Shown here piece after piece: positions 3,929 to 37,066 of a stretch of 37,066 bases of DNA (the first letter of the stretch is position 1; each line of letters opens with the position of its first letter). Source of the stretch: an uncultured Bacteroidaceae bacterium (GTDB lineage: Bacteria > Bacteroidota > Bacteroidia > Bacteroidales > GCA-2748055). Both the position numbers and the translations under genes were made by a program. Location of the stretch: assembly GCA_964406495.1 (NCBI GenBank), contig CAYOSB010000003.1, positions 23,325 to 60,390 on the forward strand, in the 5' to 3' direction. The notes under the pieces are model-generated. The model did no database searches and was not told the origin of the DNA. It saw only the letters and a list, made by a program, of their open reading frames with translations.

Positions 3929-5503
3929 CTATTGCTGATAAAAAATCGGACCCTCAATACCCAGTGGCAGCCTTGCCCATATCCATATCAGCAACATGGG
4001 GATACGGACCACCATAAATGCAATCGCATAGGGAAGCATCATCGAGATCAGCGTCCCGATTCCCACATTCTTCACATATTTCTGAGCAAAGACAATCACA
4101 AGCGGGAAGTATGGCAACAGCGGCGTAAGGATATTTGAATATGAATCACCGATCCGGTAAGCCGCCTGGGTAGTTTCAGGAGAATATCCCATGAGCATAA
4201 GCATGGGAACAAAGATTGGAGCCAGCAATGCCCACTTGGCTGATGCACTCCCCATGATCAGGTTGACAAGGGATGAAACAATGATAAAAGCAACCAGCAA
4301 AGGCCCTCCTGTAAACCCGATCGCTTTCAACCCGTCTGAACCTTTCACCGCCAGCACGCTTCCCAGGTTGGACCAGTTGAAATAGGCCACAAACTGGGCA
4401 GCAACGAATGCAATAACGATGTACATGCCCATGGTTGACATGCTCTTGGCCGTCATTTCGGCTACATCTTTATCATTTTTAATCGTTTTGGCAACAATCC
4501 CGTACACAAGTCCGGCAACAAAAAAGACGATAAACATCACGGGTACCAGCGAATCGTAGAAAGGATCAAAACTGCGCACTCCTGTTTCCGGATCCGGCGC
4601 ACCGCGCAACAGCCCATTCGCAGGAATGATGGTCAACATGAAAAGCAAAAGCACACCAAATGAAGCAATAAATGACCACATCAAGGCCTTCTTCTGCTGA
4701 CGTGTGATGGGCTTGTCCTCTTCAATCTCCAGATCGGCGTCGAGCTTATAGGCACCCAACCTTGGTATCAATATTCTTTCCGTGATCCAGGTCCCCGCCA
4801 ATCCGACCAGCGGCACAGAAGCTGCCATTAAATAATAATTTGACAATGGATTGACTGTATAATCCGGGTCGATGATCTGGGCAGCCGGTTCGGTAAAGGC
4901 AGCGATCATGGGATCCAGTCCGGTAGGAAGTATGTTTGCACCAAAGCCCCCGGAAACCCCGGCAAAGGCCGCGGCGATACCTGCAAGCGGATGCCTCCCC
5001 ATGCTCATAAATATGGCCCCTCCAAGTGGTATCAATACCACATAACCTGCATCGGCGGCGACAGAGCTGAGCATACCTGCAACAACAATGGAAAAAGTAA
5101 TAATCGACTTGGGTACTTTTGAAACAAAAAGCCGCAAACCCACCGAGATCATTCCAGTATATTCAGCCACGCCAATACCCAGCATCACAACGAGTACCAA
5201 TCCCAGTGGAGGGAAATCCGCAAAAGTCTCCACCATCCGGGTGAATATCATCTGCACTCCTTCACGCGAAAGCAGGTTGATGACATTAATTTTATCCACC
5301 GGGTTCCCTTCGGAATCAAGTAATCCTGCTGCTTTACCAGGATGATCGACAGACACGCCACCGAATATCCAGGATAACAACAGGGTAATCACCATCAAGA
5401 TTGCGAACAGGGTTACGGGGTGGGGAAGTTTGTTTCCAACAACCTCTACTTTATCGAGAATACGTTGAAAAAACCCCGGCTTCGACTTTTTACTTTTGCT
5501 CAT
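3929..5503 (-). CDS. AbgT-family transporter (YdaH/MtrF-like), paralogue 1
   Basis: VEVVGNKLPHP, FPPLGLVLVVMLGIGVAE, AAFAGVSGGFGAN, GSASAKW, AYRIGDS motifs. Confidence 0.93.
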   Translation of the reverse strand: MSKSKKSKPGFFQRILDKVEVVGNKLPHPVTLFAILMVITLLLSWIFGGVSVDHPGKAAGLLDSEGNPVDKINVINLLSREGVQMIFTRMVETFADFPPLGLVLVVMLGIGVAEYTGMISVGLRLFVSKVPKSIITFSIVVAGMLSSVAADAGYVVLIPLGGAIFMSMGRHPLAGIAAAFAGVSGGFGANILPTGLDPMIAAFTEPAAQIIDPDYTVNPLSNYYLMAASVPLVGLAGTWITERILIPRLGAYKLDADLEIEEDKPITRQQKKALMWSFIASFGVLLLFMLTIIPANGLLRGAPDPETGVRSFDPFYDSLVPVMFIVFFVAGLVYGIVAKTIKNDKDVAEMTAKSMSTMGMYIVIAFVAAQFVAYFNWSNLGSVLAVKGSDGLKAIGFTGGPLLVAFIIVSSLVNLIMGSASAKWALLAPIFVPMLMLMGYSPETTQAAYRIGDSYSNILTPLLPYFPLVIVFAQKYVKNVGIGTLISMMLPYAIAFMVVRIPMLLIWIWARLPLGIEGPIFYQQ

Positions 5504-5843: not shown

Positions 5844-7463
5844 ATGAGCCAAGAATCATCGGATAAAACGGACAAGTTCAACGAAAAGGTAAAAAAAAGC
5901 AGTGCCCCTGGAGAGAACGCTGAAACAAATGAGATTCCTGCTGCGACAGGAGTGTTGAGGTGGATTGAGATAGTAGGAAATAAACTGCCGCATCCGTTCT
6001 GGATGTTTGTCTGGATCTCGATCATCATCGTTATTACCAGTGCCATTACCGCCTATTTTGGCGTGAGTGCTATGCAGCCCGGTACAGGTGCTGAAATCGC
6101 TGCCAGGAATATTGCTACGGGAGACGGACTGCGCTGGTTCATACAAAACCTGGTAACCAATTTTGCTCATTTTGCCCCGCTTGGACTTGTACTCGTGATG
6201 CTGATGGGCGTTTCCATTGCAGAGCAGAGCGGCCTGCTGACCATCATCATGCGTAATATCGCCTTTGCAACGCCGAAGCGTATCATTTTCCCGGTGATCT
6301 TTATTATCGGTGCCTGTGGGAATATCGGCTCTGATGCCGGTGTGGTCGTGGTGCCTCCCATCGCAGCACTGATCTTCATGCAATTGGGATACCATCCCAT
6401 TGCCGGGCTGATCGCCGGATATGCAGGCGCCACTGCCGGATTCACTGCAAATTTTTTCATAGCAGGAACTGATGTATTGCTTGCCGGTATCAGTACAGAG
6501 ATCACAGAGAAGATGACCCCACCCATGGAAGTCAGCGCCACAGCCAACTGGTATTTTATGATCGTTTCAACACTTTTGCTGGGTTTTGGGGGTGCTTTTA
6601 TTGTAAGAAGATTTACCATTCCCCGAACTGCGGGATTTGCCGGCATGAATAAAGTGGCAGAAATTGCAGAAGAAAAAAAGGAACTGAAACCCGAGGAAAA
6701 AAGGGGACTGAAACATGCAGGGATCTCTTTTCTTGTTTTAGCGATCCTCATTGCAGCGCTCGTTATTCCGGCAAACGGACCTTTGCGGGATCCCGAAACC
6801 GGATCGGTCGTACCCTCTCCCTTTTTACGTGGCCTGGTGCCGATCCTCTTCCTGGTGTTTGCCATTCCCGGCTATTTTTACGGCAAAGCAGTTGGAACAA
6901 TCCAACAGAAGGATGACGTACTGAAACACATGGAACATGGCATGCGGGGACTTGCCGGATATATTGTGCTGATGCTTGTAGTGGCACAGTTCATCAACCT
7001 GTTTAGCTGGTCCAACCTCGATTCCATTATGGCCATCAATGGTGCTGAATTTTTACAGGCAACAGGCCTGACCGGTCCATTGATGTTCATCCTGTTTATT
7101 GTACTGATTGCATTTCTGAATATCTTTCTTGGTTCCGGGTCTGCAAAATGGGCCATCTTTGCACCGATTTTTATTCCCATGTTGGCAGAACTGGGATACA
7201 GCCCCGGGTTCGTCCAGTTAATGTACAGGATTGGTGACTCCATAACCAACAGTATCTCACCGCTGTATGTTTACTTCCCGCTGCTGATCGGCTGGATACA
7301 TCAGTACGACAAGCGATTGAAGATCGGCACGATCCTTTCGCTCCTGGTGCCCTATGCAGTCATTCTCTTTATCCTGTGGACCGTACTGCTGTTCGTATGG
7401 TACTTTTTAAATATCCCCATCGGCGTAGGCGAGTTTATTCATCTCACAGCAACTGCAAAATAG
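5844..7463 (+). CDS. AbgT-family transporter, paralogue 2
   Basis: IEIVGNKLPHP, FAPLGLVLVMLMGVSIAE, GSGSAKW, MYRIGDS motifs. Confidence 0.93.
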   Translation: MSQESSDKTDKFNEKVKKSSAPGENAETNEIPAATGVLRWIEIVGNKLPHPFWMFVWISIIIVITSAITAYFGVSAMQPGTGAEIAARNIATGDGLRWFIQNLVTNFAHFAPLGLVLVMLMGVSIAEQSGLLTIIMRNIAFATPKRIIFPVIFIIGACGNIGSDAGVVVVPPIAALIFMQLGYHPIAGLIAGYAGATAGFTANFFIAGTDVLLAGISTEITEKMTPPMEVSATANWYFMIVSTLLLGFGGAFIVRRFTIPRTAGFAGMNKVAEIAEEKKELKPEEKRGLKHAGISFLVLAILIAALVIPANGPLRDPETGSVVPSPFLRGLVPILFLVFAIPGYFYGKAVGTIQQKDDVLKHMEHGMRGLAGYIVLMLVVAQFINLFSWSNLDSIMAINGAEFLQATGLTGPLMFILFIVLIAFLNIFLGSGSAKWAIFAPIFIPMLAELGYSPGFVQLMYRIGDSITNSISPLYVYFPLLIGWIHQYDKRLKIGTILSLLVPYAVILFILWTVLLFVWYFLNIPIGVGEFIHLTATAK

Positions 7464-14569: not shown

Positions 14570-14906
14570 GATGATTTGTATTGAGTTGATAAGTTATTAC
14601 CCAATATACATCAAAAACATTATCAGGATAATAATATGTGCTTAATATAGCAATCAATATCAGACTCATAATCCCATTTTTTGAACTTCCGGACAGTTAT
14701 TCTATATGGTTGATGCCAATGATCAGACAGGGAAGATGAACCTTCAGCTTGGGGAAACTAAATATTTAACTTCGTTTTGTTGAAGGAATTGCCGGAGGTG
14801 ATTGGTCATTTATTCAAACAGATTCTAAAGTGTTCCGTAGGTTCAGATTGCCTGTGCATTTTTTCTATTTTTATCTCAAATTGCTGATTTTACTGGCTGT
14901 GAACAG

Positions 14907-17282
14907 ATGAAACGACGCGACTTCCTCAAACGCAATGCCCTGGTCTCCGGGGGCACCCTGGTGGGCGGCACTTTTATATCGGAATTAATGGCCGATGAAA
15001 ATGTAATGGCAGCAGCACAAACACTTTCCGCTTCTGAAAAAATGATCAGGGTGGGCTGCCCGGCACACAACTGCGGGGGCCGTTGCCTGTTAAAAGTATT
15101 CGTTAAGGAGGGAATCATTGTGAGAATCGAATCGGATGACAGACCGAATGATTCCATCGAAGATCCGCAACTGAGGGCCTGTCTGCGGGGACGTGCATAC
15201 CGGCACAGGCAATACCAATCCGACAGGCTCAGATATCCCCAGGTCAGGGTGGGAAAACGTGGAGAAGGAAAATTCGAGCGCATTTCGTGGGAGGAGGCTA
15301 CAGATATCATGGCCGAGCAGATTGTCCGGGTAAAAGAAAAATATGGCAATGAATCCATCTATATTCCTTATGGAACAGGAAGTTACAACCAGATCAACGG
15401 AAAATCCACCGCAAATCGCCTGATGAACCTGGTGGGAGGCTCGCTTGGTTACTATAATTCCTACAGCTGGGCATGCATCAGCAAGGCCACACCTTATGTG
15501 TACGGGACCAGTGTCACGGGGAATCAGCGCCAGGATTGGGTGAATGCCAAATATATACTTATGTGGGGCTGGAATCCTTCCGAAATGCGGGATGGCACCA
15601 ACAGTGAGTACTTCATTAAAAAGGCAAAAGAGCGGGGTGCAAAAATAGTATGCATCGACCCGCGAATGACCCTCAGTGCCGTGGCACTTGCAGATGAGTG
15701 GGTGGCCATCCGGCCCGGGACAGACGTGGCCCTGATGAGTGCCATGGCCTATGTGATGATCACTGAAAACCTTTACGATGAAGACTTTGTGAGGGAATGT
15801 TGCGTAGGTTTTGATGTCTCACAGATGCCTGCAGGACTGGAAAAGGAAGAGAGCTACAAGGATTATATCCTGGGAACCCATGATGGTCAGCCGAAACAAC
15901 CGGAGTGGGCTGAGGCAATCACCGCGGTACCGAGGGAAACCATTATCCGAATCGCCAGGGAATATGCCACCCTGAAACCCGGGGTGCTCTACCAGGGGTA
16001 CGGGATGCAACGCAGGGCGTATGGCGAACAGCCTGTGCGTGGCGGATGCGTACTCGCCGCGATTACCGGCAATGTAGGTGTTTCAGGCGGCTGGGCAAGC
16101 GGACTCGCACTGCAGGCGAGGGATGGCGGACCGCTGTGGTCCGTCTTCCCGACCCTTCCCAATCCGGTGAAGGCAAAAATCCCGAGTTTTCTATGGACTG
16201 AGGCAGTTACCAGGGGAACTGAAATGAGTGCGCAGGATGGACTGCTGGGCACGGACAGACTTAAAAACAACGTGAAGCTGATCTGGGCTGTTGCTTCCAA
16301 TGCCATCATCAATCAGCATGGGAATACCAACCGGACGGCAGAGATCATGAAAGATGAATCGCTTGTGGAGTTCTTTGCAGTCCAGGACAATTTCCTTACC
16401 CCCACTGCCAGGTTTGCCGATCTGTTGCTGCCTGTATGTACACAGTTTGAGACCTGGGGCGTGGAAGACGGGTGGAAATATGGCGAAGAGGTGATCCTGC
16501 AGCCGAAGATCTGTGATCCGCCCTGGGAGACAAAAAGTGATTACCGGATCTGTGCAGATATCGCAGAAAAGCTGGGTGTCGGAGATGCGTATACGGAAGG
16601 AAACAGTGAACGGGACTGGGTAGCGAAGTTCATTGAAATATTCAGGGAAGCGCGCTTTCCGCATATTCCTGATCTGGATGCATTTGAAAAATCCAACCAG
16701 GGGGTTTACTCCGTACCGGTAACTGAACCGGAAATTGCATTTGAAGATTTCCGGAAGGATCCAGCCGGGCACCCCTTGCCCACTCCCTCAGGCAAGATCG
16801 AGATATTCTCAAAACGACTATTCGACATGCATAATCCTGGAGAGATCCCGGCGGTCCCGAAATACATCACCGAATGGGAAAGTCCTTTCGGACAGGAAGC
16901 GCAAAAATTTCCCCTGCAGGTCATTGGTCCGCACTACATGCCCCGCGTGCATTCCACACACGATAATGTGGACTGGCTGAGTGAGGCGTTCCCCCAAAGA
17001 CTGTTTATCAACCCGATCGATGCCGCAGAGAGGAAGATAAAAAATGGACAGAAAGCAAAGATCTATAACGAAAGAGGAACGGTGATCCTGCCCTGCCGGA
17101 TCACTCCGCGCATACTGCCGGGTGTTGTCGCCATCCCGCAGGGCGCCTGGTGGAAACCAAATAGGAAAGGAGTTGATGAAGGCGGATCCGTGAATACGTT
17201 GACTTCCGAGAAGTGGACCCCGCTTGCATTCGGGAATGCCCAGCATACCATCATGGCAGAAGTTGAACTATATAAGGATTGA
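14907..17282 (+). CDS. dmsA: DMSO reductase-family molybdopterin catalytic subunit (DmsA/YnfE type), Tat-exported
   Basis: Tat motif MKRRDFLK; FS0 motif CPAHNCGGRC...RACLRGR; WGWNPSE, IRPGTDVAL, PTPSGKIEI, RVHSTHDN, QGAWW motifs; candidate Ser ligand in YNSYSWAC. Confidence 0.9.
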   Translation: MKRRDFLKRNALVSGGTLVGGTFISELMADENVMAAAQTLSASEKMIRVGCPAHNCGGRCLLKVFVKEGIIVRIESDDRPNDSIEDPQLRACLRGRAYRHRQYQSDRLRYPQVRVGKRGEGKFERISWEEATDIMAEQIVRVKEKYGNESIYIPYGTGSYNQINGKSTANRLMNLVGGSLGYYNSYSWACISKATPYVYGTSVTGNQRQDWVNAKYILMWGWNPSEMRDGTNSEYFIKKAKERGAKIVCIDPRMTLSAVALADEWVAIRPGTDVALMSAMAYVMITENLYDEDFVRECCVGFDVSQMPAGLEKEESYKDYILGTHDGQPKQPEWAEAITAVPRETIIRIAREYATLKPGVLYQGYGMQRRAYGEQPVRGGCVLAAITGNVGVSGGWASGLALQARDGGPLWSVFPTLPNPVKAKIPSFLWTEAVTRGTEMSAQDGLLGTDRLKNNVKLIWAVASNAIINQHGNTNRTAEIMKDESLVEFFAVQDNFLTPTARFADLLLPVCTQFETWGVEDGWKYGEEVILQPKICDPPWETKSDYRICADIAEKLGVGDAYTEGNSERDWVAKFIEIFREARFPHIPDLDAFEKSNQGVYSVPVTEPEIAFEDFRKDPAGHPLPTPSGKIEIFSKRLFDMHNPGEIPAVPKYITEWESPFGQEAQKFPLQVIGPHYMPRVHSTHDNVDWLSEAFPQRLFINPIDAAERKIKNGQKAKIYNERGTVILPCRITPRILPGVVAIPQGAWWKPNRKGVDEGGSVNTLTSEKWTPLAFGNAQHTIMAEVELYKD

Positions 17283-17283
17283 A

Positions 17284-17907
17284 ATGGAAAGACTTGCGTT
17301 CTACTTTGATTCCAATGCATGCTCGGGTTGTAAAACCTGCCAGGTGGCCTGTAAGGATAAAAATAATCTTCCGGTGGGCATCACCTGGAGACGGGTCTAT
17401 GAAATCACGGGAGGTGGCTGGAAGCGTTCCGGCGCTGCATGGGTCTCCAATGTGATCGCCTACAATCTTTCAATCGCATGTAACCACTGTGAGAATCCTG
17501 TATGCCTTGATGCCTGTCCGGCAAAGGCCATAGAAAAAGCGGAGAATGGAATTGTGACCATTGACCGGGAGAAATGCATGGGGTGCAAATATTGTTCCTG
17601 GACCTGTCCCTATAGCGCCCTTCAGTATGATGAGGAGCATGGCGTGATGACAAAATGTGATATGTGCATGGACTATGTTTCCTCGGGCAAAAATCCGGCA
17701 TGTGTGGATGCCTGTCCGGCCAGGGCACTGGATTTCGGAGAATACAATGCACTTGTTGCAAAGTATGGAGCATCCGCACATATCCATCCCCTGCCTGACC
17801 AGCGCATGACGGATCCTTCCAGTTTGATCGCTCCACACAAGGATGCCATGAAAGCACAAAATGATTCAGCAATCATTTCAAACATGGAGGAAATTAAGCA
17901 TGAATGA
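17284..17907 (+). CDS. dmsB: DMSO reductase four-cluster Fe-S subunit
   Basis: CSGCKTCQVAC, CNHCENPVCLDACP, CMGCKYCSWTCPY, KCDMC...PACVDACP; ATG at 17284, just after the dmsA TGA. Confidence 0.92.
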   Translation: MERLAFYFDSNACSGCKTCQVACKDKNNLPVGITWRRVYEITGGGWKRSGAAWVSNVIAYNLSIACNHCENPVCLDACPAKAIEKAENGIVTIDREKCMGCKYCSWTCPYSALQYDEEHGVMTKCDMCMDYVSSGKNPACVDACPARALDFGEYNALVAKYGASAHIHPLPDQRMTDPSSLIAPHKDAMKAQNDSAIISNMEEIKHE

Positions 17908-18748
17908 TGAAGGCGCACTGATTGCTTTTACCCTGCTCAGCCAGGTGGTCATCGGATCTACACTCGTGTATGTGCTCGTTTATTTCCTAAGCATAGAGGA
18001 TATTGCACAGCTTCCAACAGGATTCAGCCTCAAAACACCTGAATTCCTGTTTTTGCTGGGTTTGCTGGTGGCAATAATACTATCCTTCCTCCACCTGGGC
18101 CGGCCTTCCAATGCCGTCAATGCACTGAATAACCTGAAGTCTTCGTGGATCAGCCGGGAGATATTTACGGTTACGCTGTTTTCAGTAAGCCTGCTGATGC
18201 TGTGGATGGCCCGGTGGCTGGGTGCCGGGAGGTCTTTGCTGACAGTTTCATTTATATTCGCTGCGGTGGCAGGTTTGATCCTGCTGGTGACAATGGTGAA
18301 ATTGTACATGATTCCGGCCGTGCCGACCTGGAACAACTGGCTGACCCCGGCGCATTTTACCCTGACCGTCATGGTCTCTGGCCTTGCGCTGATGCTTGTC
18401 TTTGTCATGGTATACAACATTGAATTCACCACGATCAAACCCTTCCTGGTGGTGCTCATGATCCTGCTGTTGTTTGAGATGGCCCATGCGGTATTATTAT
18501 ATGTTCAGCTGAATTCTATGGATCCCGCTTATGGGAATTCGTTTATTTCAGAAGGAATCTTCAGGTTCCTGACGATCACCAGGGTCGCTGTAACCGGACT
18601 GGCCATGGCATTCCTTGTTCTTGTCTCAATCCGTGCCCAGGCACACACCCACGGCACAATGTTCATCCTTTCCGTGTCTTTCATTTTTACCGAGATGTTG
18701 GTGGGAAGGTACCTGTTCTTTGCCGCCTTTGCGAGGACCGGGATCTGA
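17900..18748 (+). CDS. dmsC: DmsC-family membrane anchor
   Basis: LIAFTLLSQ, SFLHLGRP.NA.NAL..L.SSWISREI, EMLVGRYLFF; ATG at 17900 overlaps the end of dmsB and is preceded by GGAGG. Confidence 0.88.
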   Translation: MNDEGALIAFTLLSQVVIGSTLVYVLVYFLSIEDIAQLPTGFSLKTPEFLFLLGLLVAIILSFLHLGRPSNAVNALNNLKSSWISREIFTVTLFSVSLLMLWMARWLGAGRSLLTVSFIFAAVAGLILLVTMVKLYMIPAVPTWNNWLTPAHFTLTVMVSGLALMLVFVMVYNIEFTTIKPFLVVLMILLLFEMAHAVLLYVQLNSMDPAYGNSFISEGIFRFLTITRVAVTGLAMAFLVLVSIRAQAHTHGTMFILSVSFIFTEMLVGRYLFFAAFARTGI

Positions 18749-18998
18749 CCCATCAGATGCTTTATTCATTTGCTACTGTCAGTGACTTAATTGTTGAACA
18801 TACCGCCAGCTATAATACCAAAAAGTACAAACCCGGGCTGAGCGGCATTCGAAGAGGATGGGTTTATTTACCGTACAGACTGACTACCAGGGTTCATGAA
18901 CATCATCTGTATTCCAGGGAAATAAATCATGGTATAAAGGAAGGAGCATATTGCTATTTGGACCTGTAGTAGTATTTTCGCATCAATAAAAAGAGGCA

Positions 18999-19430
18999 AT
19001 GGCAAAACGCGAAAAAAGAAATAAGAGCCGCGGATCGGCGGGTAATAACCGGAAAATGGGAGAAGACTTCCTGGAAAAGAACCGCAGAAAAGAGGGGGTA
19101 CAAGAAACGGATTCGGGCTTGCAGTACCTGGTAGTTGAAGAAGGCGAAGGCGATTGCCCGGATGCACACGCCACTATCACAGTTCACCAGCGGTGCCAGC
19201 TTGTCAACGGAACCGTCATTGAGGATACGTATCGCAAAAACGAGCCTTCAGAAGTAGAAATGCAAGAACTCATTGAAGGCTACCGGGAAGGTATTCAGCT
19301 GATGAATAAGGGCGCACGCTACAAATTATTTATTCCCTGGGAGCTGGCCTGGGGAAAAAACGGTACCGGCAGCAAGATCCCTCCATACTCAATGCTTGTA
19401 TTTGATGTCAGATTGATCGATTTTTGGTAG
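18999..19430 (+). CDS. FKBP-type peptidyl-prolyl cis-trans isomerase
   Basis: ETDSGLQYLVVEEGEG, LIEGYREGIQLM..G....LFIPWELAWG, IPPYSMLVFDVRL. Confidence 0.92.
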   Translation: MAKREKRNKSRGSAGNNRKMGEDFLEKNRRKEGVQETDSGLQYLVVEEGEGDCPDAHATITVHQRCQLVNGTVIEDTYRKNEPSEVEMQELIEGYREGIQLMNKGARYKLFIPWELAWGKNGTGSKIPPYSMLVFDVRLIDFW

Positions 19431-19769
19431 ATGGGTTAGTGTTACTTGCTACTTCGGAATAATTATCAACAATAGGCAGTAAATAAAGGAAGCAGTTCCC
19501 TGGAATTGTTGAAAGATTTGAATTAAGTCTTGACTAATTCATTTTATCGTAACCAACTATTATTATTTTTTATTGATTACGGTATGCTTCCCAAGGTTTG
19601 CTAAGCTATTTTAACGTATTTTCTCCTGATATTTCCATCCTTTTGAAATAGGTTCTTCTGGTCCTGTTTTCAAAATTTCATTAAGAACCGGCCTGGTGTT
19701 AACCCTTTGAGCGTGTCGTTTGGTCTTCGATGGTTGTAAAGGCTCAAAAAAAACAGGGTGTGGCCTGTA

Positions 19770-19857
19770 TTGCTCGTCGTACATCCTCGCGAGTCCTGAG
19801 GTGGAGGCCTTACCAAGAAAAAGCCTTCTCGCTCATCCCTCGCAGAATACGGTCTTT
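19770..19857. repeat. Structured ~90-bp repeat, copy A (REP-like)
   Basis: Colinear with 21320-21406; 43/60 identical, ungapped, over 19771-19830 vs 21321-21380 (hand count); two GCTC...CCTCGC submotifs. Confidence 0.75.
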
Positions 19858-19860
19858 TCC

Positions 19861-19890
19861 TTAGTAGCGGGGACAGGTGAAATATCGAAC
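19861..19890. mobile_element. att-like site 1 (antisense tRNA-fMet 3'-end-like core plus TGAAATATC arm)
   Basis: TTAGTAG-CGGGGACAGG-TGAAATATCGAAC. The minus strand reads GTTCGA...CCTGTCCCCGCTAC, resembling the T-arm/acceptor end of tRNA-fMet; translates as LVAGTGEISNFNLLNDL. Confidence 0.65.
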
Positions 19891-19928
19891 TTCAATTTGC
19901 TGAATGATCTGGGGAAGCGGTTGAACTT

Positions 19929-19973
19929 CTTACCATATTTTAACTTACCATTTGGTTACTTACCATTTGGTTA
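19929..19973. repeat. Three tandem 15-bp repeats
   Basis: CTTACCATATTTTAA, CTTACCATTTGGTTA, CTTACCATTTGGTTA; internal dyad ACCA-TT-TGGT. Confidence 0.85.
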
Positions 19974-19997
19974 GTTTACGTAGATTTATTACCTTTA
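19966..19997 (+). promoter_or_regulatory. Putative Bacteroidota -33/-7 promoter for the ATPase gene
   Basis: TTTG (19966-69), N20, TACCTTTA (19990-97; one mismatch to TAnnTTTG); inverted repeat TTTACGT (19975-81)/ACGTAAA (20003-09) around the -7. Confidence 0.5.
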
Positions 19998-20012
19998 AAG
20001 AAACGTAAATAA

Positions 20013-21149
20013 ATGAAACCACCTTTTACCTTTGGGAAACTAGTATTAGAAAACGATTTTACGGATAGGATTGCTGAAACCCGTCGATTGATTTCAAATT
20101 TCAATTCATCCGTAAATACCATCCTCATTTCACCAAGAAGATGGGGAAAATCCTCCCTGGTAGTAAAAGCAGCAAAAAGTATTCAAACCAAATCAAAGAA
20201 GATCATCTTCTGCATGATTGACCTGAACAACATAAGGTCTGAAGAACAATTCTATAAATTACTGGCAACAAAAGTCCTTCAACAATCTTCTTCAAAAATT
20301 GATTCAATTCTGGAAAACGCAAAATTATTTCTGGGCAGTTTCATACCGAATATCAGTTTCAGTCCAAACCCGGAAACAGATCTAAAACTCTCGCTTGACT
20401 GGAATGAAGTCAGAAAAGAACCAGATGATATTCTTGATCTTGCCGAGAAGATTGCAGCAAAAACAAAGATGCAAATTATAATCTGCATTGATGAGTTTCA
20501 AAATATTTCTGAATTTGAGCATCCTGTTGACTTTCAAAAAAAATTACGTGCACATTGGCAATTACATCAGCATGTTACCTATTGTCTTTATGGTAGTAAA
20601 CGACATATGTTAATGGAAGTATTCAGTTCTCCATCCATGCCGTTTTATAAATTTGGGGATATCATATTCCTCGAAAAGATTATGGAAAAAGACTGGATAG
20701 ATTTCATAATAAAGCGATTTCAGGAAACAGGCAAGCGCATAGATCCTGATGGTGCTGCAATGATTGCAAATTCTTGCGAAAATCATCCCTATTATGTACA
20801 ACAGCTGGCGCAGCAGGTATGGTTGAGAAGCAGTAAAAATTGCAAACCACAAATTATTAACGAAGCATTTGAAGATTTGATAATGCAGCTAAGCATGTTA
20901 TTTCAGATGCTGACAGATGATCTAAGCTTAAAACAAATCAATTTTCTTCATGCCCTCACCAACAAGGAAGAACAAGTCACCTCACAAAGTGTATTAAAAA
21001 AGTACAATCTCGGAACATCAGCAAATGTGATTAAAATTAAAAAAGTGCTCCATGATCGGGAAATTATTGATATCGTGGGAAAGAAAATCGAGTTTATGGA
21101 TCCTCTATATAAATACTGGCTGAAGAACTACTATTTTAATCCTGAATAG
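20013..21149 (+). CDS. AAA/'archaeal-type' P-loop ATPase with probable C-terminal winged helix
   Basis: Walker A SPRRWGKSS, Walker B ICIDEFQ, YGS motif, HPYYVQQL, C-terminal FMDPLYKYWL. Confidence 0.85.
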   Translation: MKPPFTFGKLVLENDFTDRIAETRRLISNFNSSVNTILISPRRWGKSSLVVKAAKSIQTKSKKIIFCMIDLNNIRSEEQFYKLLATKVLQQSSSKIDSILENAKLFLGSFIPNISFSPNPETDLKLSLDWNEVRKEPDDILDLAEKIAAKTKMQIIICIDEFQNISEFEHPVDFQKKLRAHWQLHQHVTYCLYGSKRHMLMEVFSSPSMPFYKFGDIIFLEKIMEKDWIDFIIKRFQETGKRIDPDGAAMIANSCENHPYYVQQLAQQVWLRSSKNCKPQIINEAFEDLIMQLSMLFQMLTDDLSLKQINFLHALTNKEEQVTSQSVLKKYNLGTSANVIKIKKVLHDREIIDIVGKKIEFMDPLYKYWLKNYYFNPE

Positions 21150-21154
21150 TCAAA

Positions 21155-21282
21155 TAAGAATCTACCTACCTTGAAATCCGATGTTGATTCTAGCGCAAAA
21201 CATTCATTTATAATAAATACAGAAGGAGATAAAAAGAAAAACCAACCGAAAAAGGCGGATTGTCCTGCGTAGTAGCGGGGGG
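21155..21282 (+). pseudogene. Heavily decayed large-serine-recombinase C-terminal tail ending in a tRNA-like core
   Basis: Across frames: RIYL..., AKHSFIINTEGDKKKNQPKKAD, then SCVVAGG. This parallels RIYLT...AKSQF*KVSGGKNKN...SSLV at 23.4-23.6 kb. TAGTAGCGGGG at 21270-21280 exactly repeats 19862-19872. Confidence 0.45.
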
Positions 21283-21319
21283 TAGTGCCTCCTGCGCTAT
21301 AAGCTTCAGTGGATAATAG

Positions 21320-21406
21320 TTGCTCTTCGTTGCTCCTCGCGAGTCCATGGGGAGAGACTTTATTAAGCAAAAGCCTTTCTGCTCGTAACCTCGCAGAACC
21401 GGTCTC
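21320..21406. repeat. Structured ~90-bp repeat, copy B (REP-like)
   Basis: See copy A; stems GAGAGAC/GTCTCTT and TTCTGC/GCAGAA. Confidence 0.75.
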
Positions 21407-21437
21407 TTTTCAATTAGACAAATTATCGACAAGAATG

Positions 21438-21491
21438 AAAAAGCAGAGTGTGCGTTTATCGCTACCGCTCTTCACCCTCACTCTGCTTTTT
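21438..21491. terminator. Probable bidirectional intrinsic terminator
   Basis: Perfect 13-bp inverted repeat AAAAAGCAGAGTG (21438-50)/CACTCTGCTTTTT (21479-91) between the convergent ATPase and hipT genes; the loop is long (28 nt). Confidence 0.6.
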
Positions 21492-21519
21492 AGTAGACGA
21501 TATGACTGAAATATCTATC
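21490..21519. mobile_element. att-like site 2
   Basis: TTAGTAG-ACGATATGAC-TGAAATATCTATC; translates as LVDDMTEISILDL; TTTAGTAGAC (21489-98) is repeated exactly at 23561-70. Confidence 0.6.
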
Positions 21520-21580
21520 CTTGATTTGCCTGGTGAGTTGAGGGAAGTGACTGATTTTCTGAATGCTAATATAAATAACC

Positions 21581-22588
21581 CTATGTTAGATTAATTATCT
21601 CCAATCGTTCCTGATAGTGTCGTCTATAAAGACTTTTTGTTTCCTGATCCAAAAATGATCTGTCAATTAAACTCATTACCTCCGTTTGTTCTTCCAAAAA
21701 GGGAGTAAGTAATTTTATTACTCTTCTCTCGCTTATCTGAATTGCTTTTCCGAATTCAATGAAATCTTCTTTACAAGGATAGTTATCTGTATTTTGAATC
21801 CTGCAATCGGACCAATACCATTCCTTAAACAGATCATTATCCAATGCAAAAGGACTCTCTTCACTTACATGGATTCTTGTATCTAACAGATCATAAGCAG
21901 GACTTAATACATAATCTCCATTGATGGTTTCCAGGAGTGAAAAATTCTTTAAATGAGCATCACCATTCGAGAATAGAAAATTAAATATCACTAATCGATA
22001 ATATTTCTCCATTTCGATCTTCCAGGCACCTACATATCTCTGAATAAGCTCAGCAATACCCTCATAGGAATAGTTGTATTTGAAGTTCTTTCCTGCATTC
22101 TCCTCCGTCTTACCCGCCAGTGATGCAAAATCTTCCTTTCCCAGCTTGCGTCCTCCCTCACCAATATCAAATCGTTTCGTAAGATATGCAGGTTCACCAT
22201 TTTTGAAAAATACCATTCCGTTTTCAGCAATTTGAATTTGGTAGACTTTAGCAGCTATTTGCATTGTTAAATGCTCATTTGCAGGAACCATACTTGTCCT
22301 TTTAAGTCCATGTGGCTTAGGTTTAAGAATATATGTACCCTGTTCCTTTTCTTCTGTTAAACGCAACATGTTTTTTTCTAACAATAAAGAGTATTTTTCC
22401 TGAACACCGGAAATTGAAATTCGTTTCTGGTTTTCCATGAATTTCTGCTGATCTTCCTCATCAACCTCCGGTGCATTATAAGGTAATATATGGCTCACTT
22501 TTTTCCCGTCAAACATTCTTCTAAGAAAAAGTGGACTATATTGCGAAAACCCCTCTGTAAGCAGACCCGGGCAATACTTTAACTCCAT
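21581..22588 (-). CDS. hipT: HipA-family kinase toxin lacking the N-subdomain (HipT-like)
   Basis: Gly-rich loop ISISGVQEK, YILKP, NEHLTMQIA, YLTKRFD, NGDAHLKNFS, LSPAYD. Confidence 0.88.
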   Translation of the reverse strand: MELKYCPGLLTEGFSQYSPLFLRRMFDGKKVSHILPYNAPEVDEEDQQKFMENQKRISISGVQEKYSLLLEKNMLRLTEEKEQGTYILKPKPHGLKRTSMVPANEHLTMQIAAKVYQIQIAENGMVFFKNGEPAYLTKRFDIGEGGRKLGKEDFASLAGKTEENAGKNFKYNYSYEGIAELIQRYVGAWKIEMEKYYRLVIFNFLFSNGDAHLKNFSLLETINGDYVLSPAYDLLDTRIHVSEESPFALDNDLFKEWYWSDCRIQNTDNYPCKEDFIEFGKAIQISERRVIKLLTPFLEEQTEVMSLIDRSFLDQETKSLYRRHYQERLEIINLT

Positions 22589-22594
22589 ATAATT

Positions 22595-22918
22595 CTAACT
22601 GTCTATTGGTTTCACTGTAATGGCACCTATGGTATCAAATTGCGCTGTTGCCAGCAGCAAGCCAAAAAAATCTTTTTCATCAATCTTTAGTTGTTTTGAC
22701 TGAAGTGTCCTGTTTGTCCCTTCCGAAAGCATGTTAAAGAAAAAAGGAAACAGGGTTTTTGAAGTATATGACAATTTTGTTTTAGGAATTGTCAGGCTTA
22801 TAGCTGGCTGTGTACTATCATTATAGTATTCCGGATCGTAGTTAAATGTAAAACCTCTATCTGATTCAAATAAGATTCCTGCCCTGATGTTATTTCTATA
22901 TATTTCTGCGCTTCTCAT
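22595..22918 (-). CDS. hipS: HipA N-terminal-domain protein (HipS-like antitoxin)
   Basis: AGIL...GFTFNYD..Y, AISLTIP, LFPFFFNMLSEG, DTIGAITV; lies between the HTH and kinase genes. Confidence 0.85.
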   Translation of the reverse strand: MRSAEIYRNNIRAGILFESDRGFTFNYDPEYYNDSTQPAISLTIPKTKLSYTSKTLFPFFFNMLSEGTNRTLQSKQLKIDEKDFFGLLLATAQFDTIGAITVKPIDS

Positions 22919-23127
22919 TTATGTGGCCTTTTTATTTCAAGATTTATATCCAGCCCTAATACATCTGCTATCTTACGCAGGTTGTCTAATGTTATATTTC
23001 CCCTGCCACTCTCAAAACGCTTTAAGGTTGCAAGTCCAACTTCAGAAAGTTCTGCCAAATGTTCCTGGTTAATTCCAAGAATAGCTTTTCTTTCTTTTAT
23101 TACCTTTATTAACTCCTCGTTTGTCAT
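22915..23127 (-). CDS. hipB: XRE-family HTH regulator (HipB-like)
   Basis: IKERKAILGINQEHLAELSEVGLATLKRFESGRGNITLDNLRKIADVLGL; ATG at 23127 (track start TTG 23133); 4-bp overlap with hipS. Confidence 0.85.
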   Translation of the reverse strand: MTNEELIKVIKERKAILGINQEHLAELSEVGLATLKRFESGRGNITLDNLRKIADVLGLDINLEIKRPHK

Positions 23128-23141
23128 TTTCAAACACCATC

Positions 23142-23287
23142 AATAGTGTCATATATGATATTATTTCATAAAATTAGGCTCTTTTTCTAATATATGCAAA
23201 CCAATAGTATCATATTTGATTCTATTTATCAGGTTGAATAGAAATCCGATAAACCCAATCAATATTAGTGTCATATATGATACCTTA
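23142..23287 (-). promoter_or_regulatory. Three palindromic operators at exact 61-bp period, with the hipBST promoter between copies 1 and 2
   Basis: AATAGTGTCATATATGATATTATT (23142), AATAGTATCATATTTGATTCTATT (23203), ATTAGTGTCATATATGATACCTTA (23264); minus-strand TTTG (23200-23197), N20, TAATTTTA (23176-23169). Confidence 0.75.
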
Positions 23288-23330
23288 TATGCTATTGCTG
23301 TTTAACTTCAGCAACTAATGAACAACTTGA

Positions 23331-23633
23331 TTCCTGAAGTCAGGAGATACATTTGATAATTACTGGCACTTAGGTGTTCTTGAGGAATAGAGAAAGATTC
23401 AGAAATTGGTATTTCCTGAAGGAATTAGGGTGGATACTAAATACCGGATATATCTAACCTCCAAAGTAAATTCCTTATTTCTTGCAAAGTCCCAATTTTA
23501 AAAGGTGTCAGGAGGTAAAAATAAAAACTTCCCATCCGCCGCGGCAGATGAGGAGTCCTCTTTAGTAGACAAGGTGATTGAAATATCTAACCTGGATCTC
23601 ATCAAAGATATTATTGAACTTGCTGGAATTTGA
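23331..23633 (+). pseudogene. C-terminal remnant of a large serine recombinase, two in-frame stops, containing att-like site 3
   Basis: YWHLGVLEE*RKIQKLVFPEGIRVDTKYRIYLTSKVNSLFLAKSQF*KVSGGKNKN...SSLVDKVIEISNLDLIKDI; stops at 23388 (TAG) and 23499 (TAA). The QKLxFPEGI...YLT.KVN..F pattern is one I recognise from Bacteroidota recombinase tails. Confidence 0.7.
23562..23591. mobile_element. att-like site 3
   Basis: TTAGTAG-ACAAGGTGAT-TGAAATATCTAAC, preceded by the near-perfect palindrome CATCCGCCGCGGCAGATG (23533-23550), which forms a minus-strand hairpin with a T-tract. Confidence 0.6.
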
Positions 23634-23842
23634 AGGGATTGGATTAATATATAGTCGCCTGCCCCCACAAATTTTATTGTTCTAAAGCCTGACCTTTTTG
23701 AAAAAGCTTTGACTTTATTAACTCCTCCATATAATATTAAAGCCAATATCTGATCTTAGTTTAACAATTCACTAATGAATTCCTTACTTTTATCTCTTGA
23801 ATAAGATTTGATCATGGTGAAGAATAGGCTATTTTATTAAAT

Positions 23843-24424
23843 ATGAATCTTATTAATGGCATAGATGAGCGTAAATTGATCATCAGGCTTTCAGAAGGTG
23901 ATGAAACAGCTTTTGAAATTCTTTTCAGGCATTATTATCCCGGCCTGGTCATCTATGCTTCAAAATTTGTTCAGGACAGAACTGAAGCAGAGGAAATTGT
24001 ACAGGAATTCTTTATCCGATTGTGGGAGAAACATCATAAAATCAAGTCATCCTCTACTTTAAAATCATATGTATTCCAGTCAGTCAAAAATAGTTCCCTG
24101 AACTATATCCGGGATAAAAAAGTTAGTCTGCCAATCATAGAAGAACTCGTCCAAAAGTCTAATTCTGAGTTGATCTTCAATCAAGACCTGTATGTCGCAT
24201 CTGAGCTGCAACGAAAAATTGAAAGTGCGGTAAACAATCTTCCTGAAAAATGCCGGGAGGTATTCCTGATGAGCCGTTTCAGGAATATGAAGAATGATGA
24301 GATTGCACAGGAATTAAATATTTCCAAACGAACGGTAGAAACCCATATCAGCAATGCAATAAAGGTCCTCAAAACAGAACTAAAGGACTTCCTCATACTG
24401 CTTATTATGTTCAAACTGGGCTAA
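23843..24424 (+). CDS. ECF sigma-70 factor (Bacteroidota PUL type)
   Basis: GDETAFEILFRHYY, AEEIVQEFFIRLW, LPEKCREVFLMSR, EIAQELNISKRTVETHIS. Confidence 0.93.
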   Translation: MNLINGIDERKLIIRLSEGDETAFEILFRHYYPGLVIYASKFVQDRTEAEEIVQEFFIRLWEKHHKIKSSSTLKSYVFQSVKNSSLNYIRDKKVSLPIIEELVQKSNSELIFNQDLYVASELQRKIESAVNNLPEKCREVFLMSRFRNMKNDEIAQELNISKRTVETHISNAIKVLKTELKDFLILLIMFKLG

Positions 24425-24449
24425 TTCCTGAAAATAATCACTTTTTACT

Positions 24450-24477
24450 TACGTGTCCCTCCTGCTTTTTGTGTATT
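24450..24477 (+). promoter_or_regulatory. Putative ECF-dependent promoter upstream of the anti-sigma gene
   Basis: TACGTGT-N13-TGTGTATT in the sigma/anti-sigma gap; position and form resemble motifs I recall from such loci (unverified). Confidence 0.35.
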
Positions 24478-24521
24478 GATGACAAATGAACTCGGTTTAT
24501 ACCTGTCAATACAACTAATTT

Positions 24522-36921: not shown

Positions 36922-36960
36922 CATGGAAACCAACTTGTAAGCAGGCTAACCCATTCTCCA

Positions 36961-37066
36961 ATTGAGTAGGAAGATAGGGATAATTTCCCTATCTGTCCTC
37001 TCACACCACCTTGCATACCGTTCGGTACACGGCGGTTCCTTAAATAATAACTCTAACATTCCTGTA
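36961..37066 (-). mobile_element. 3' end of a group IIC intron (domains V and VI) with the probable last codons of its reverse transcriptase/maturase ORF
   Basis: Minus strand: ...YRNVRVII*(37040), then GAACCGCCGTGTACCGAACGGTATGCAAGGTGGTGTGAGAGGAC (short IIC domain V with CGC triad), hairpin AGATAGGGA-AATTA-TCCCTATCT, then CCTACTCAAT (bulged A, AY end at 36961). Confidence 0.9.

Follow-up and report, generated by a model that had tools for sequence, protein, structure and literature searches.

Among described genomic islands, the staphylococcal cassette chromosome (SCC and SCCmec) and the ssrA islands of Dehalococcoides appear to be the nearest counterparts of the locus considered here, a tandem array of short modules bounded by the hexamer TAGTAG in a 37,066-nucleotide stretch of an uncultured Bacteroidaceae genome (contig CAYOSB010000003.1, positions 23,325 to 60,390; this whole stretch is called the window). 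SCC islands are described as tandem units lying between repeated attachment (att) sites of large serine recombinases (LSRs), CcrAB or CcrC, at rlmH in staphylococci; many of the units have no recombinase, their cargo is rich in accessory and defence-type genes, and mobilization in trans has been demonstrated (PMC11470126). The Dehalococcoides islands, with the LSR DsiB at the transfer-messenger RNA gene, are likewise reported as tandem. They lie downstream of a small stable-RNA gene, are bounded by repeats of its 3' end, and have an LSR of about 540 residues at the island edge and a ParB-type gene in the integration module, as does the intact element of genome G072 described below; 15 of them lack the integration module and are interpreted in that study as cis-mobilizable elements (PMC3146451).

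Other systems offer partial parallels. The cis-mobilizable elements (CIMEs) related to streptococcal integrative and conjugative elements (ICEs) embody the same concept, namely integrase-less, att-flanked units that accrete with an autonomous element and can be mobilized (as cited in PMC3146451). The integrases of phage Mx8 and of the SSV type, whose genes contain attP, are described as having their own coding sequence altered or split by integration, with Mx8 Int gaining a new 3' end (PMC6070905, PMC4383910). Integrons share the arrangement of small cassettes arrayed between recombination sites, often with toxin-antitoxin cargo.

We propose, with a probability of about three in four, that the interval at 19.7-23.6 kb of the window belongs to a tandem island formed by accretion of elements from a single family of Bacteroidota LSRs, with the initiator tRNA gene (tRNA-fMet) as their target. 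Four kinds of observation carry this proposal: protein homology, the architecture of element junctions, arrays in related genomes, and breaks of homology at TAGTAG.

A recombinase gene that overlaps a tRNA gene

The host genome of the window, a metagenome-assembled genome (MAG) of 515 contigs and 81.6% completeness, encodes on another contig (C6:20207-21859) an intact protein of 551 residues, P0001, which the combination of a catalytic Resolvase domain (residues 28-175), a Recombinase domain (214-291) and a Zn_ribbon_recom domain (305-337) marks as a predicted LSR. P0001 matches the N-terminal domain of the TP901-1 integrase and the C-terminal domain of the A118 integrase, and contains the sequence YTRVSS, which we take to hold the catalytic serine. 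The last ~40 nucleotides of its gene overlap a tRNA-Met(CAT) gene on the opposite strand (C6:21821-21894), and the final codons, ..ESCLVAGTGLEPVTFGL*, are the antisense of that tRNA. Read from its sequence, the tRNA has a 1:72 mismatch and three G-C pairs in the anticodon stem, which are hallmarks of an initiator tRNA. The coding stretch in front of TAGTAG (KKLPxxxxEES) folds on the other strand (z -6.4), which places the tRNA terminator within the recombinase gene.

This overlap is a family trait. A search with the C-terminal third of P0001 returned 116 homologues, the named ones from Flavobacterium, Tenacibaculum, Pontibacter, Aquimarina, Rufibacter and other genera, and G[LF]EPxxFGL is the C-terminal sequence of 112; of the 103 homologues with 520 residues or more, 101 have it. 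P0019 is an exception: it is truncated at the N-terminus and ends in ..EESSLVDYTIEISNLDLVKDI.., with what we call an EISN tail. The stop codon TGA of the recombinase (C6:21856-21862, locus L008) lies opposite the anticodon loop of the tRNA (..TTA TGA G.. against CTCATAA), so that every member of the family at the tRNA ends in ..TFGL*. An earlier note on this stretch, made from its letters alone, had given as background that Bacteroidota LSRs often read through their own att site into an antisense tRNA, and had suggested searching for an intact cognate enzyme elsewhere in the genome. P0001 and its homologues bear out the first point, for tRNA-fMet, and P0001 itself answers the second.

Homology ties the window to this family. 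Positions 23358-23567 match P0001 at 70% identity over 70 residues, with two stops (tblastn, E 6e-20), and 23358-23624 match P0019 at 72% identity over 89 residues, tail included (E 1e-30), which agrees with the earlier assignment of 23331-23633 to a serine-recombinase C-terminus. The motif that recurs here, TTAGTAG-N10-TGAAATATC, has exactly three copies in the window, each on the plus strand (19861, 21490 and 23562); dinucleotide shuffles give an expectation of 0.02, and none of 100 reaches three. Two shorter direct repeats, TAGTAGCGGGG at 19862 and 21270 and TTTAGTAGAC at 21489 and 23561, are each present twice against 0.02 and 0.05 copies expected. The three motif copies translate to LVAGTGEISNFNL, LVDDMTEISILDL and LVDKVIEISNLDL. 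The identical spacing of the copies, both repeats and the translations had been given in the earlier note, and all are reproduced exactly. Its description of the sites as tRNA-like can be vouched for at copy 1, whose first 17 nucleotides, TTAGTAGCGGGGACAGG, correspond exactly to the reverse complement of the tRNA-Met(CAT) 3' end in this genome together with 4 trailing nucleotides, and are common to the recombinase/tRNA junction on C6 and to one tail on contig C328 (tail B). The hairpin and T-tract that it placed on the minus strand after each core are significant at copies 2 (z -3.8) and 3 (z -2.8) and not at copy 1 (z -1.25). A search of window positions 18500-24500 against Rfam gave no match at E<=1.

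What the sequence behind each core represents is best seen in genome G072, where contig C79 holds an intact 12-kb element with such a tail marking its far end. Read in the direction of the recombinase, the locus runs from a host hairpin through TAGTAGCGGGGGTAG and a D1 module (see below), another hairpin, TAGTAG and a tail (LVDKVIEISNLEL..), then some 10.5 kb of cargo and the recombinase gene, to TAGTAG and tRNA-fMet on the opposite strand. The recombinase has 551 residues and is 77% identical to P0001, and the cargo includes a ParB_N-methylase gene and a small tyrosine-recombinase-like gene. Only TAGTAG is shared between the two junctions, attL and attR, which places the crossover there. The tail would be the right arm on the element side, and would complete the recombinase open reading frame (ORF) in an excised circle. 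The earlier note had seen the tail as the end of a unit that had lost the catalytic part of its enzyme; the G072 element and the linkage of tails to hipBST (below) put it at the start of a unit instead.

The tails themselves look like coding sequence. We collected 31 of them from the loci compared, using the pattern with up to two mismatches and dropping one false hit; the frame that begins with LV stays open for at least 20 codons in 29, and column entropies at codon positions 1, 2 and 3 are 1.09, 0.82 and 1.22, second positions being the most conserved and third positions the least. They are a conserved module of 25-30 codons. A recombinase-type hairpin precedes nine of the 31; in front of most others stands an unrelated hairpin that repeats the layout of A-run, stem and TTTCTT.

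Same-strand tail arrays recur in many relatives, where the motif marks the boundaries of units; the stacking and the motif-delimited units of the earlier note are supported. Across 81 genomes of the family, the hit table contains 39 exact matches to the motif in 22 genomes; a scan allowing one mismatch was disregarded, as its reversed-pattern control was frequent in about as many genomes. Tails on one contig lie on one strand, in the window as in G078, G056, G095, L058 and L064. Contig C5 of G078 carries six tails on the same strand, with two recombinase remnants between them, and then tRNA-fMet on the other strand; G056:C13 has five tails within 4.6 kb, and L064 has five within 5.6 kb, including an empty unit of 193 bp. 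When 15 tail-bearing loci were followed downstream, tRNA-fMet was reached on the opposite strand in five (G078:C5, G072:C79, G095:C6, G087:C2 and G067:C27), was not found within at least 15 kb (15-20 kb) in another five, and the remaining five were cut by contig ends within 10 kb. The cargo of small units includes HicAB, HipBST, Fic, ORF6N, DUF4143 ATPases, M48 peptidase, GH88, a zinc dehydrogenase and an AraC regulator. The host genome contains a second array on contig C328, in which a tail, an ORF6N gene and a further tail are followed by a primase/helicase-like gene and one more gene (as read from the translations).

These observations suggest the following model. Elements would integrate at the 3' terminus of the initiator tRNA-Met gene by a crossover in or next to TAGTAG, that is, the last 4 nucleotides of the tRNA and 2 nucleotides beyond it. 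The attP site would lie inside the recombinase gene, which in the excised form would end in the conserved EISN tail of about 25-30 codons; integration would leave this tail at the far junction, and the gene would then read into the antisense tRNA and end ..LVAGTGLEPVTFGL*. The KKLPxxxxEES stretch before TAGTAG would act on the other strand as the terminator hairpin of the tRNA. With the terminator inside the gene, the tRNA-side junction would look like a fresh target, and further elements could stack there. A unit would then consist of TAGTAG, tail, cargo, and either a recombinase or just the terminator hairpin.

Some features of the C6 locus may be recorded here. P0001 lies in C6:16900-21900 (L007, L008, L030) beside a small resolvase of 218 residues and a gene of no assigned function, the latter also present in the G072 element. 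A look-alike at C6:19168 was considered as the far end of the C6 element and set aside as doubtful; the left region is unique in the genus.

Modules of the window

Four modules, each bounded by TAGTAG, occupy the window between 19.7 and 23.6 kb: D1; tail 1 and an ATPase gene; D1 again, in a module of 221 bp; and tail 2 with hipBST and a recombinase remnant, the last module abutting tail 3. The ORFs of 18999-24424 have FKBP, AAA, HipA, HTH and sigma-70 domains only. The leftmost module is a D1 copy at 19755..19860 (plus strand; nhmmer with a D1 profile, E 1.6e-6, with repeat and alignment), its core decayed and its hairpin degenerate. Tail 1, at 19861..19974 (plus strand; nhmmer E 1e-12), has the TTAGTAG core, an N10 identical to the antisense of tRNA-fMet, and an EISN tail (LVAGTGEISNFNLLNDL...). 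It precedes cargo 1, an AAA ATPase at 20013..21149 (plus strand; AAA_14 and ATPase_2-like by Pfam), and from one TAGTAG to the next this unit measures 1408 bp (19862 to 21270). A core-only copy (TAGTAGCGGGGGGTAG) and then a second D1 copy, D1', occupy 21270..21437 (plus strand; nhmmer E 7.8e-6, with repeat and alignment). They are followed at 21438..21491 by a strong hairpin between an A-run and a T-run, an inverted repeat that is terminator-like on both strands (-24.5 kcal/mol, z -3.8) and forms the left arm of site 2; core, D1' and hairpin together make up the 221-bp module from 21270 to 21491.

Tail 2 (LVDDMTEISILDL...EVTDFLNANINNPMLD*), at 21490..21594 on the plus strand, was recognized by the motif scan and by comparison with relatives as a diverged copy of their hipBST-linked tail. 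Cargo 2 (21581..23133, minus strand) is a trio of genes: a 72-residue hipB-like HTH protein at 22915-23133 (HTH_3, couple_hipB), a 107-residue hipS-like protein with the HipA N-terminal domain at 22595-22918 (Couple_hipA in Pfam, couple_hipA in NCBIfam), and a 335-residue hipT-like kinase with the HipA C-terminal domain at 21581-22588 (HipA_C in Pfam). The order, HTH then small HipA-N protein then HipA_C kinase, matches HipBST, and on order and domains together the trio is a predicted HipBST tripartite toxin-antitoxin module with a putative kinase. The earlier calls of an ATPase and of hipBST are confirmed by the Pfam and NCBIfam matches. Upstream of hipB, at 23144..23282, three partly palindromic 17-nucleotide repeats (TAGTGTCATATATGATA-like) stand 61 bp apart (repeat family and inverted repeats), and are probably HipB operators.

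The LSR remnant follows at 23358..23561 on the plus strand; it comprises the last ~70 codons with two stops, and includes the minus-strand terminator hairpin at 23531-23552 (tblastn, terminator scan, fold z -2.8). Tail 3 (LVDKVIEISNLDLIKDIIELAGI*), at 23562..23633 on the plus strand, is in frame with this remnant (motif scan, tblastn to P0019) and adjoins an ECF sigma / FecR / SusC cluster. The TAGTAG-to-TAGTAG unit of tail 2, hipBST and remnant measures 2072 bp (21491 to 23563). The claim that each unit ends in a decayed recombinase tail therefore stands in part: a recognizable remnant precedes copy 3 only, copies 1 and 2 consist of the stretch from LV onward, and the tails are a conserved module rather than decayed sequence. 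Similarly, the two single-cargo units described between the three sites are there, accompanied by two D1 copies and by two older tails to the left. One of these, at 14751..14812 on the plus strand, is an old, decayed variant with an insertion of ~19 nucleotides and no TAGTAG, upstream of a molybdopterin-oxidoreductase operon (nhmmer with the 31-tail profile, E 6e-5); the other, a remnant (..LELLKDLN*) at 19499..19534 on the plus strand directly after the FKBP gene, is weak taken alone (nhmmer E 0.059). Given these two, the array may start before the oxidoreductase operon and the FKBP gene. Decay of the tails grows leftward across the window, an anecdotal observation that fits growth of the array at its right-hand, tRNA-proximal end.

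D1 is a conserved module of about 115 nucleotides that always starts at the tRNA-like core TAGTAGCGGGGGTAG, in the window copies and in L035, L040, L033, L058, L061 and L041. After the core it replaces the tail or the body of the tRNA; it contains a hairpin with compensatory changes at three pairs (RNAalifold), and its end is formed by a terminator hairpin. It occurs singly, in tandem (G020), beside tRNA-fMet (G078, G087) and before tails (G072, G095). D1 was considered as a tRNA-like RNA gene and this was set aside as insufficiently supported: RNAalifold gives one hairpin and a pairing of only 4 bp between the 5' side and the tRNA-like 3' end. D1 belongs to no Rfam family; on L035 only the true tRNA lies above the gathering cut-off, with two weak matches far below it (E 0.17 and 0.36).

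The three-gene operon at 14907-18748 lies between the two decayed tails and is perhaps itself old cargo. From the translations, its first gene (791 residues) reads as a molybdopterin oxidoreductase with a twin-arginine-like leader, and genes 2 and 3 as a 4Fe-4S protein and a membrane anchor. The tail variant with ~19 inserted nucleotides (..GATGAACCTTTAGCTCGGCGAAACC..) between N10 and AAATATC, seen at 14751-14812, also occurs in L028 of G009 (~3950-4010), at 5884 of the reverse complement of L064, and in sequencing run X4. At the contig end, window positions 36960-37066 are a repeat found on at least three other contigs of the genome and five times in G001, probably the end of an insertion sequence.

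Breakpoints in relatives and the case for mobility

Relatives break homology with the window at TAGTAG, as had been predicted. In G012, at about 90% nucleotide identity, the left flank of the window ends at ~19858 and the right flank resumes at 23564. Between the flanks lie genes for a secreted repeat protein, an IS66-like fragment (read from its translation), a recombinase remnant, Fic and a different hipBST, and G012 carries the orthologue of tail 3 beside the same ECF sigma gene. L053 (90% nucleotide identity) matches the window from 4-5 nucleotides left of the TAGTAG of tail 2; left of that point it has a DUF4143-like ATPase (read from its translation) and a recombinase-type hairpin. L058, a metagenome contig at 67-78% nucleotide identity, is arranged like the window, with tail, ATPase, tail, hipBST, a remnant cut at the identical point, and tail in succession, its ATPase being 67% identical to that of the window and in the same array position. 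It has a D1 module of 190 bp exactly at the TAGTAG before the tail that follows the remnant, has none before tail 2, and differs in its right-hand cargo. In G006, tails follow directly on the same FKBP gene, with other cargo.

These comparisons bear on one alternative, that the motif is a dispersed terminator or a repeat of the REP or MITE type (repetitive extragenic palindrome or miniature inverted-repeat transposable element) unrelated to any recombinase, or that the contig is a chimera joined at repeats. Each site does have a terminator-like hairpin, and in the run that is probably the source, Logan unitigs are interrupted at 21249/21262 and again at 23564-23593, where a stretch of 30 nucleotides is shared with contig C328. 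We nevertheless regard this explanation as highly improbable: tails are in-frame continuations of recombinase reading frames and delimit an intact element at one end, tails or D1 are also present at this FKBP/ECF locus in G012 and G006, and L058 preserves the order of ATPase, hipBST, remnant and tail.

The linkage of tails to cargo was surveyed with hipT, in 32 metagenome loci with a near full-length gene (the other 23 of 55 rows, partial or ~50% identical, were excluded). A tail adjoins the 3' end of hipT in eight of 16 loci at 79% identity or more, and also in G009, and in none of the 16 at 77% or less. The neighbours of hipBST differ among the window, G009, L053, L058, L061 and L064. Five other genomes (L016-L019 and others) contain ATPase homologues, 66-71% identical, with no tail within ~1.5 kb; the ATPase gene is thus not always cassette-borne.

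A second alternative, which we consider unlikely, is that after the first integrations the arrays were shaped by homologous recombination, gene conversion or slippage between tails of 60-80 nucleotides and cores of 6-15 nucleotides, the units being passive relics with no site-specific part. The tails do share identical blocks of 25-30 nucleotides between loci and genera, and some deletions have ends away from TAGTAG (in L054, L052 and G012). The recombinases P0001-P0047 contain an internal (E/K)(I/L)SN helix motif about 90 residues before the C-terminus; in P0001 (C6:21557, L008) it shares a 14-nucleotide identity, GAAATATCTAACCT, with the tails, and the same motif is the exact point of fusion between a recombinase remnant and a tail on contig C96 of G012 (L022). 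Such exchange may add to the shuffling. As a full account it meets two difficulties: several breakpoints coincide with the left border of TAGTAG, next to flanking hairpins that have no homology to one another (L053 against the window, and the D1 insertions), and the insertion of a D1 module needs more than deletion.

At the other end of the range stands a live cassette platform, SCC-like or, in the words of the earlier note, integron-like, in which recombinase-less units, including D1 modules of ~190-220 bp, would be excised as circles and re-inserted at TAGTAG in trans, here by the C6 enzyme. The cognate enzyme is present and intact, and its 17-nucleotide core is identical to those of tail 1 and of tail B on C328; units of only 193-617 bp without a recombinase remnant lie between consecutive tails; the window and L058 differ by the presence of a D1 module, precisely at TAGTAG, in two places of the array; the genes next to the hipBST cassette vary among loci; and the tails are still open and conserved. 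Precedent comes from recombinase-less SCC-like cassettes, which are reported to be moved in trans by CcrAB or CcrC (PMC11470126). Set against this, intact enzymes of the subfamily occur in two of the 81 genomes (G000 and G072) and exact tails in 22; copies of a cassette in different contexts share 77-93% identity and are in no case nearly identical; L058, at 67-78% identity, has both the ATPase-hipBST order and the truncation point in common with the window, which speaks for long vertical inheritance; and two tail-type sites are both attL- or attP-like, a pairing that LSRs are described as normally refusing (PMC3783163). Nor were excision joints, circles or deletion forms found in the Logan contigs of four public runs, of which X2-X4 cover the locus partially. 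We therefore hold a live platform to be possible and on the unlikely side, and the mobilization in trans proposed in the earlier note is not borne out. The varied neighbours, and the D1 modules that are there in one array and missing in another at TAGTAG, speak for mobility of the recombinase-less units in the past at least, as opposed to their being deletion relics; the scarcity of intact enzymes, the old shared block and the rule on attL x attL argue against present activity.

In runs X1 and X2, a unitig of 466 nucleotides corresponding to window 23549-23625, at about half the genome depth, contains a recombinase-type hairpin linked to a tail with six differences from tail 3 in 77 positions. 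Its first 22 nucleotides are identical to C6, and it continues into sequence outside the MAG; it represents either a further tail-bearing locus of this community or a junction resembling attP.

Several results weigh against the accretion island that we prefer, or limit it. ARAGORN detects no tRNA gene within the window, whose contig terminates in a multicopy repeat, so anchoring at tRNA-fMet is unproven for this particular array. No far-end tail or D1 is recognizable for P0001 on its 43-kb contig. No full-length recombinase with an EISN tail was found among proteins of at least 561 residues, a weak negative, so that the excised form is one that we infer, as we do the order of events and the movement of recombinase-less units in trans rather than their origin by mere deletion. 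With attL x attL recombination barred by ordinary LSR rules, internal units should not excise singly. The closest hipBST relative, L052 (92.6% nucleotide identity), has no tail and breaks at gene ends; L054 lost the remnant and tail 3 by an ordinary deletion with ends away from TAGTAG; G012 carries a tail whose 5' end is missing; and G002 has the ECF sigma gene with no tail beside it. One line of support was also withdrawn. The distance of the zinc-ribbon-domain DNA motif from the centre is described as 5 bp greater in half-sites of attP than in those of attB (PMC3783163), and a TYKAACYT-like word in the tails does lie 5 nucleotides outward of its position in the tRNA arm, yet the +5 register gives 37% identity, against 47% for the best ungapped register, -2/-3, of the 31 tails, in their DNA beyond N10, on the antisense tRNA arm (C6:21819-21878; the others tried gave 12-37%). 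The tail may descend from a copy of the 3' half of the tRNA. The block shared with L058 indicates that the array is old and mostly vertically inherited. The result for the window alone is modest: an old, largely fossil array.

A bolder reading, rather unlikely as a whole, joins a true trans cassette system in Bacteroidota, with units down to the ~190-bp D1, to a built-in direction switch by exchange of the C-terminus. Excision would restore an EISN helix of ~28 residues at the C-terminus, and integration would swap in 14 residues encoded by the tRNA; the tail resembles the internal (E/K)(I/L)SN coiled-coil helix, and may dock there in the manner of a recombination directionality factor. Complex prediction of the P0019 tail with the rest of P0019 lends this weak support, with a median score of 0.42 (three runs at 0.03, 0.42 and 0.56; best of three controls 0.00), contacts agreeing in at least 55% between runs, and a partner pLDDT of at least 39. 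In the benchmark the mark was reached by 58 of 80 solved complexes and two of 110 mismatched pairs, and scores of 0.60 or less comprised only seven of the 80 solved complexes together with both mismatched pairs that passed.

Comparison with described systems

Docking at tRNA-fMet would be a new target for serine recombinases, in a widespread family. It would explain a type of variable island with toxin-antitoxin, ATPase, Fic and metabolic genes, and offer compact integrases with attB in a universal, single-copy, essential gene. Control of recombination direction by a C-terminal swap may be a testable idea. According to a 2014 reference work, serine recombinases are not known to use the target class to which the initiator tRNA gene belongs. 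A literature search, covering main texts without supplements, found no description of this recombinase family, of its in-gene attP or of the cassette arrays.

The likeness to integrons that the earlier note proposed does not hold beyond the layout. The 18999-24424 interval contains no IntI tyrosine integrase, attI or Pc platform (IntI was not scanned for across the whole window). The sites are not imperfect palindromes of the attC type; they continue the reading frame of an LSR, and the recombinase family is a different one. Moreover, the cargo lies on both strands, and hipBST has an operator-like region of its own before hipB. The CIMEs of streptococcal ICEs depend on tyrosine integrases, use the 3' end of a protein gene and are much larger than the units here. 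Mx8 and SSV integrases are also tyrosine recombinases, whereas here a serine recombinase would receive an antisense tRNA as its replacement end.

Accretion of the SCC or ssrA-island kind is the fitting analogy. Compared with SCC, whose target is a protein gene, the target here is the 3' end of tRNA-fMet, in Bacteroidota; there is one recombinase gene, whose own 3' end spans attP; and the units are far smaller (0.2-2 kb), with a case for mobility that is comparative. The Dehalococcoides islands are described as having a 20-bp repeat and an insertion point within the T-loop; the junctions here have TAGTAG alone in common, at the 3' terminus of the tRNA, the recombinase gene overlaps that of the RNA and appears to swap its C-terminus, and both the phylum and the target RNA are others. 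What appears to be new is the host phylum, the use of tRNA-fMet by a serine recombinase as its target, an attP inside the recombinase gene together with a terminator encoded within its ORF, the very small size of the units, and the D1 modules.

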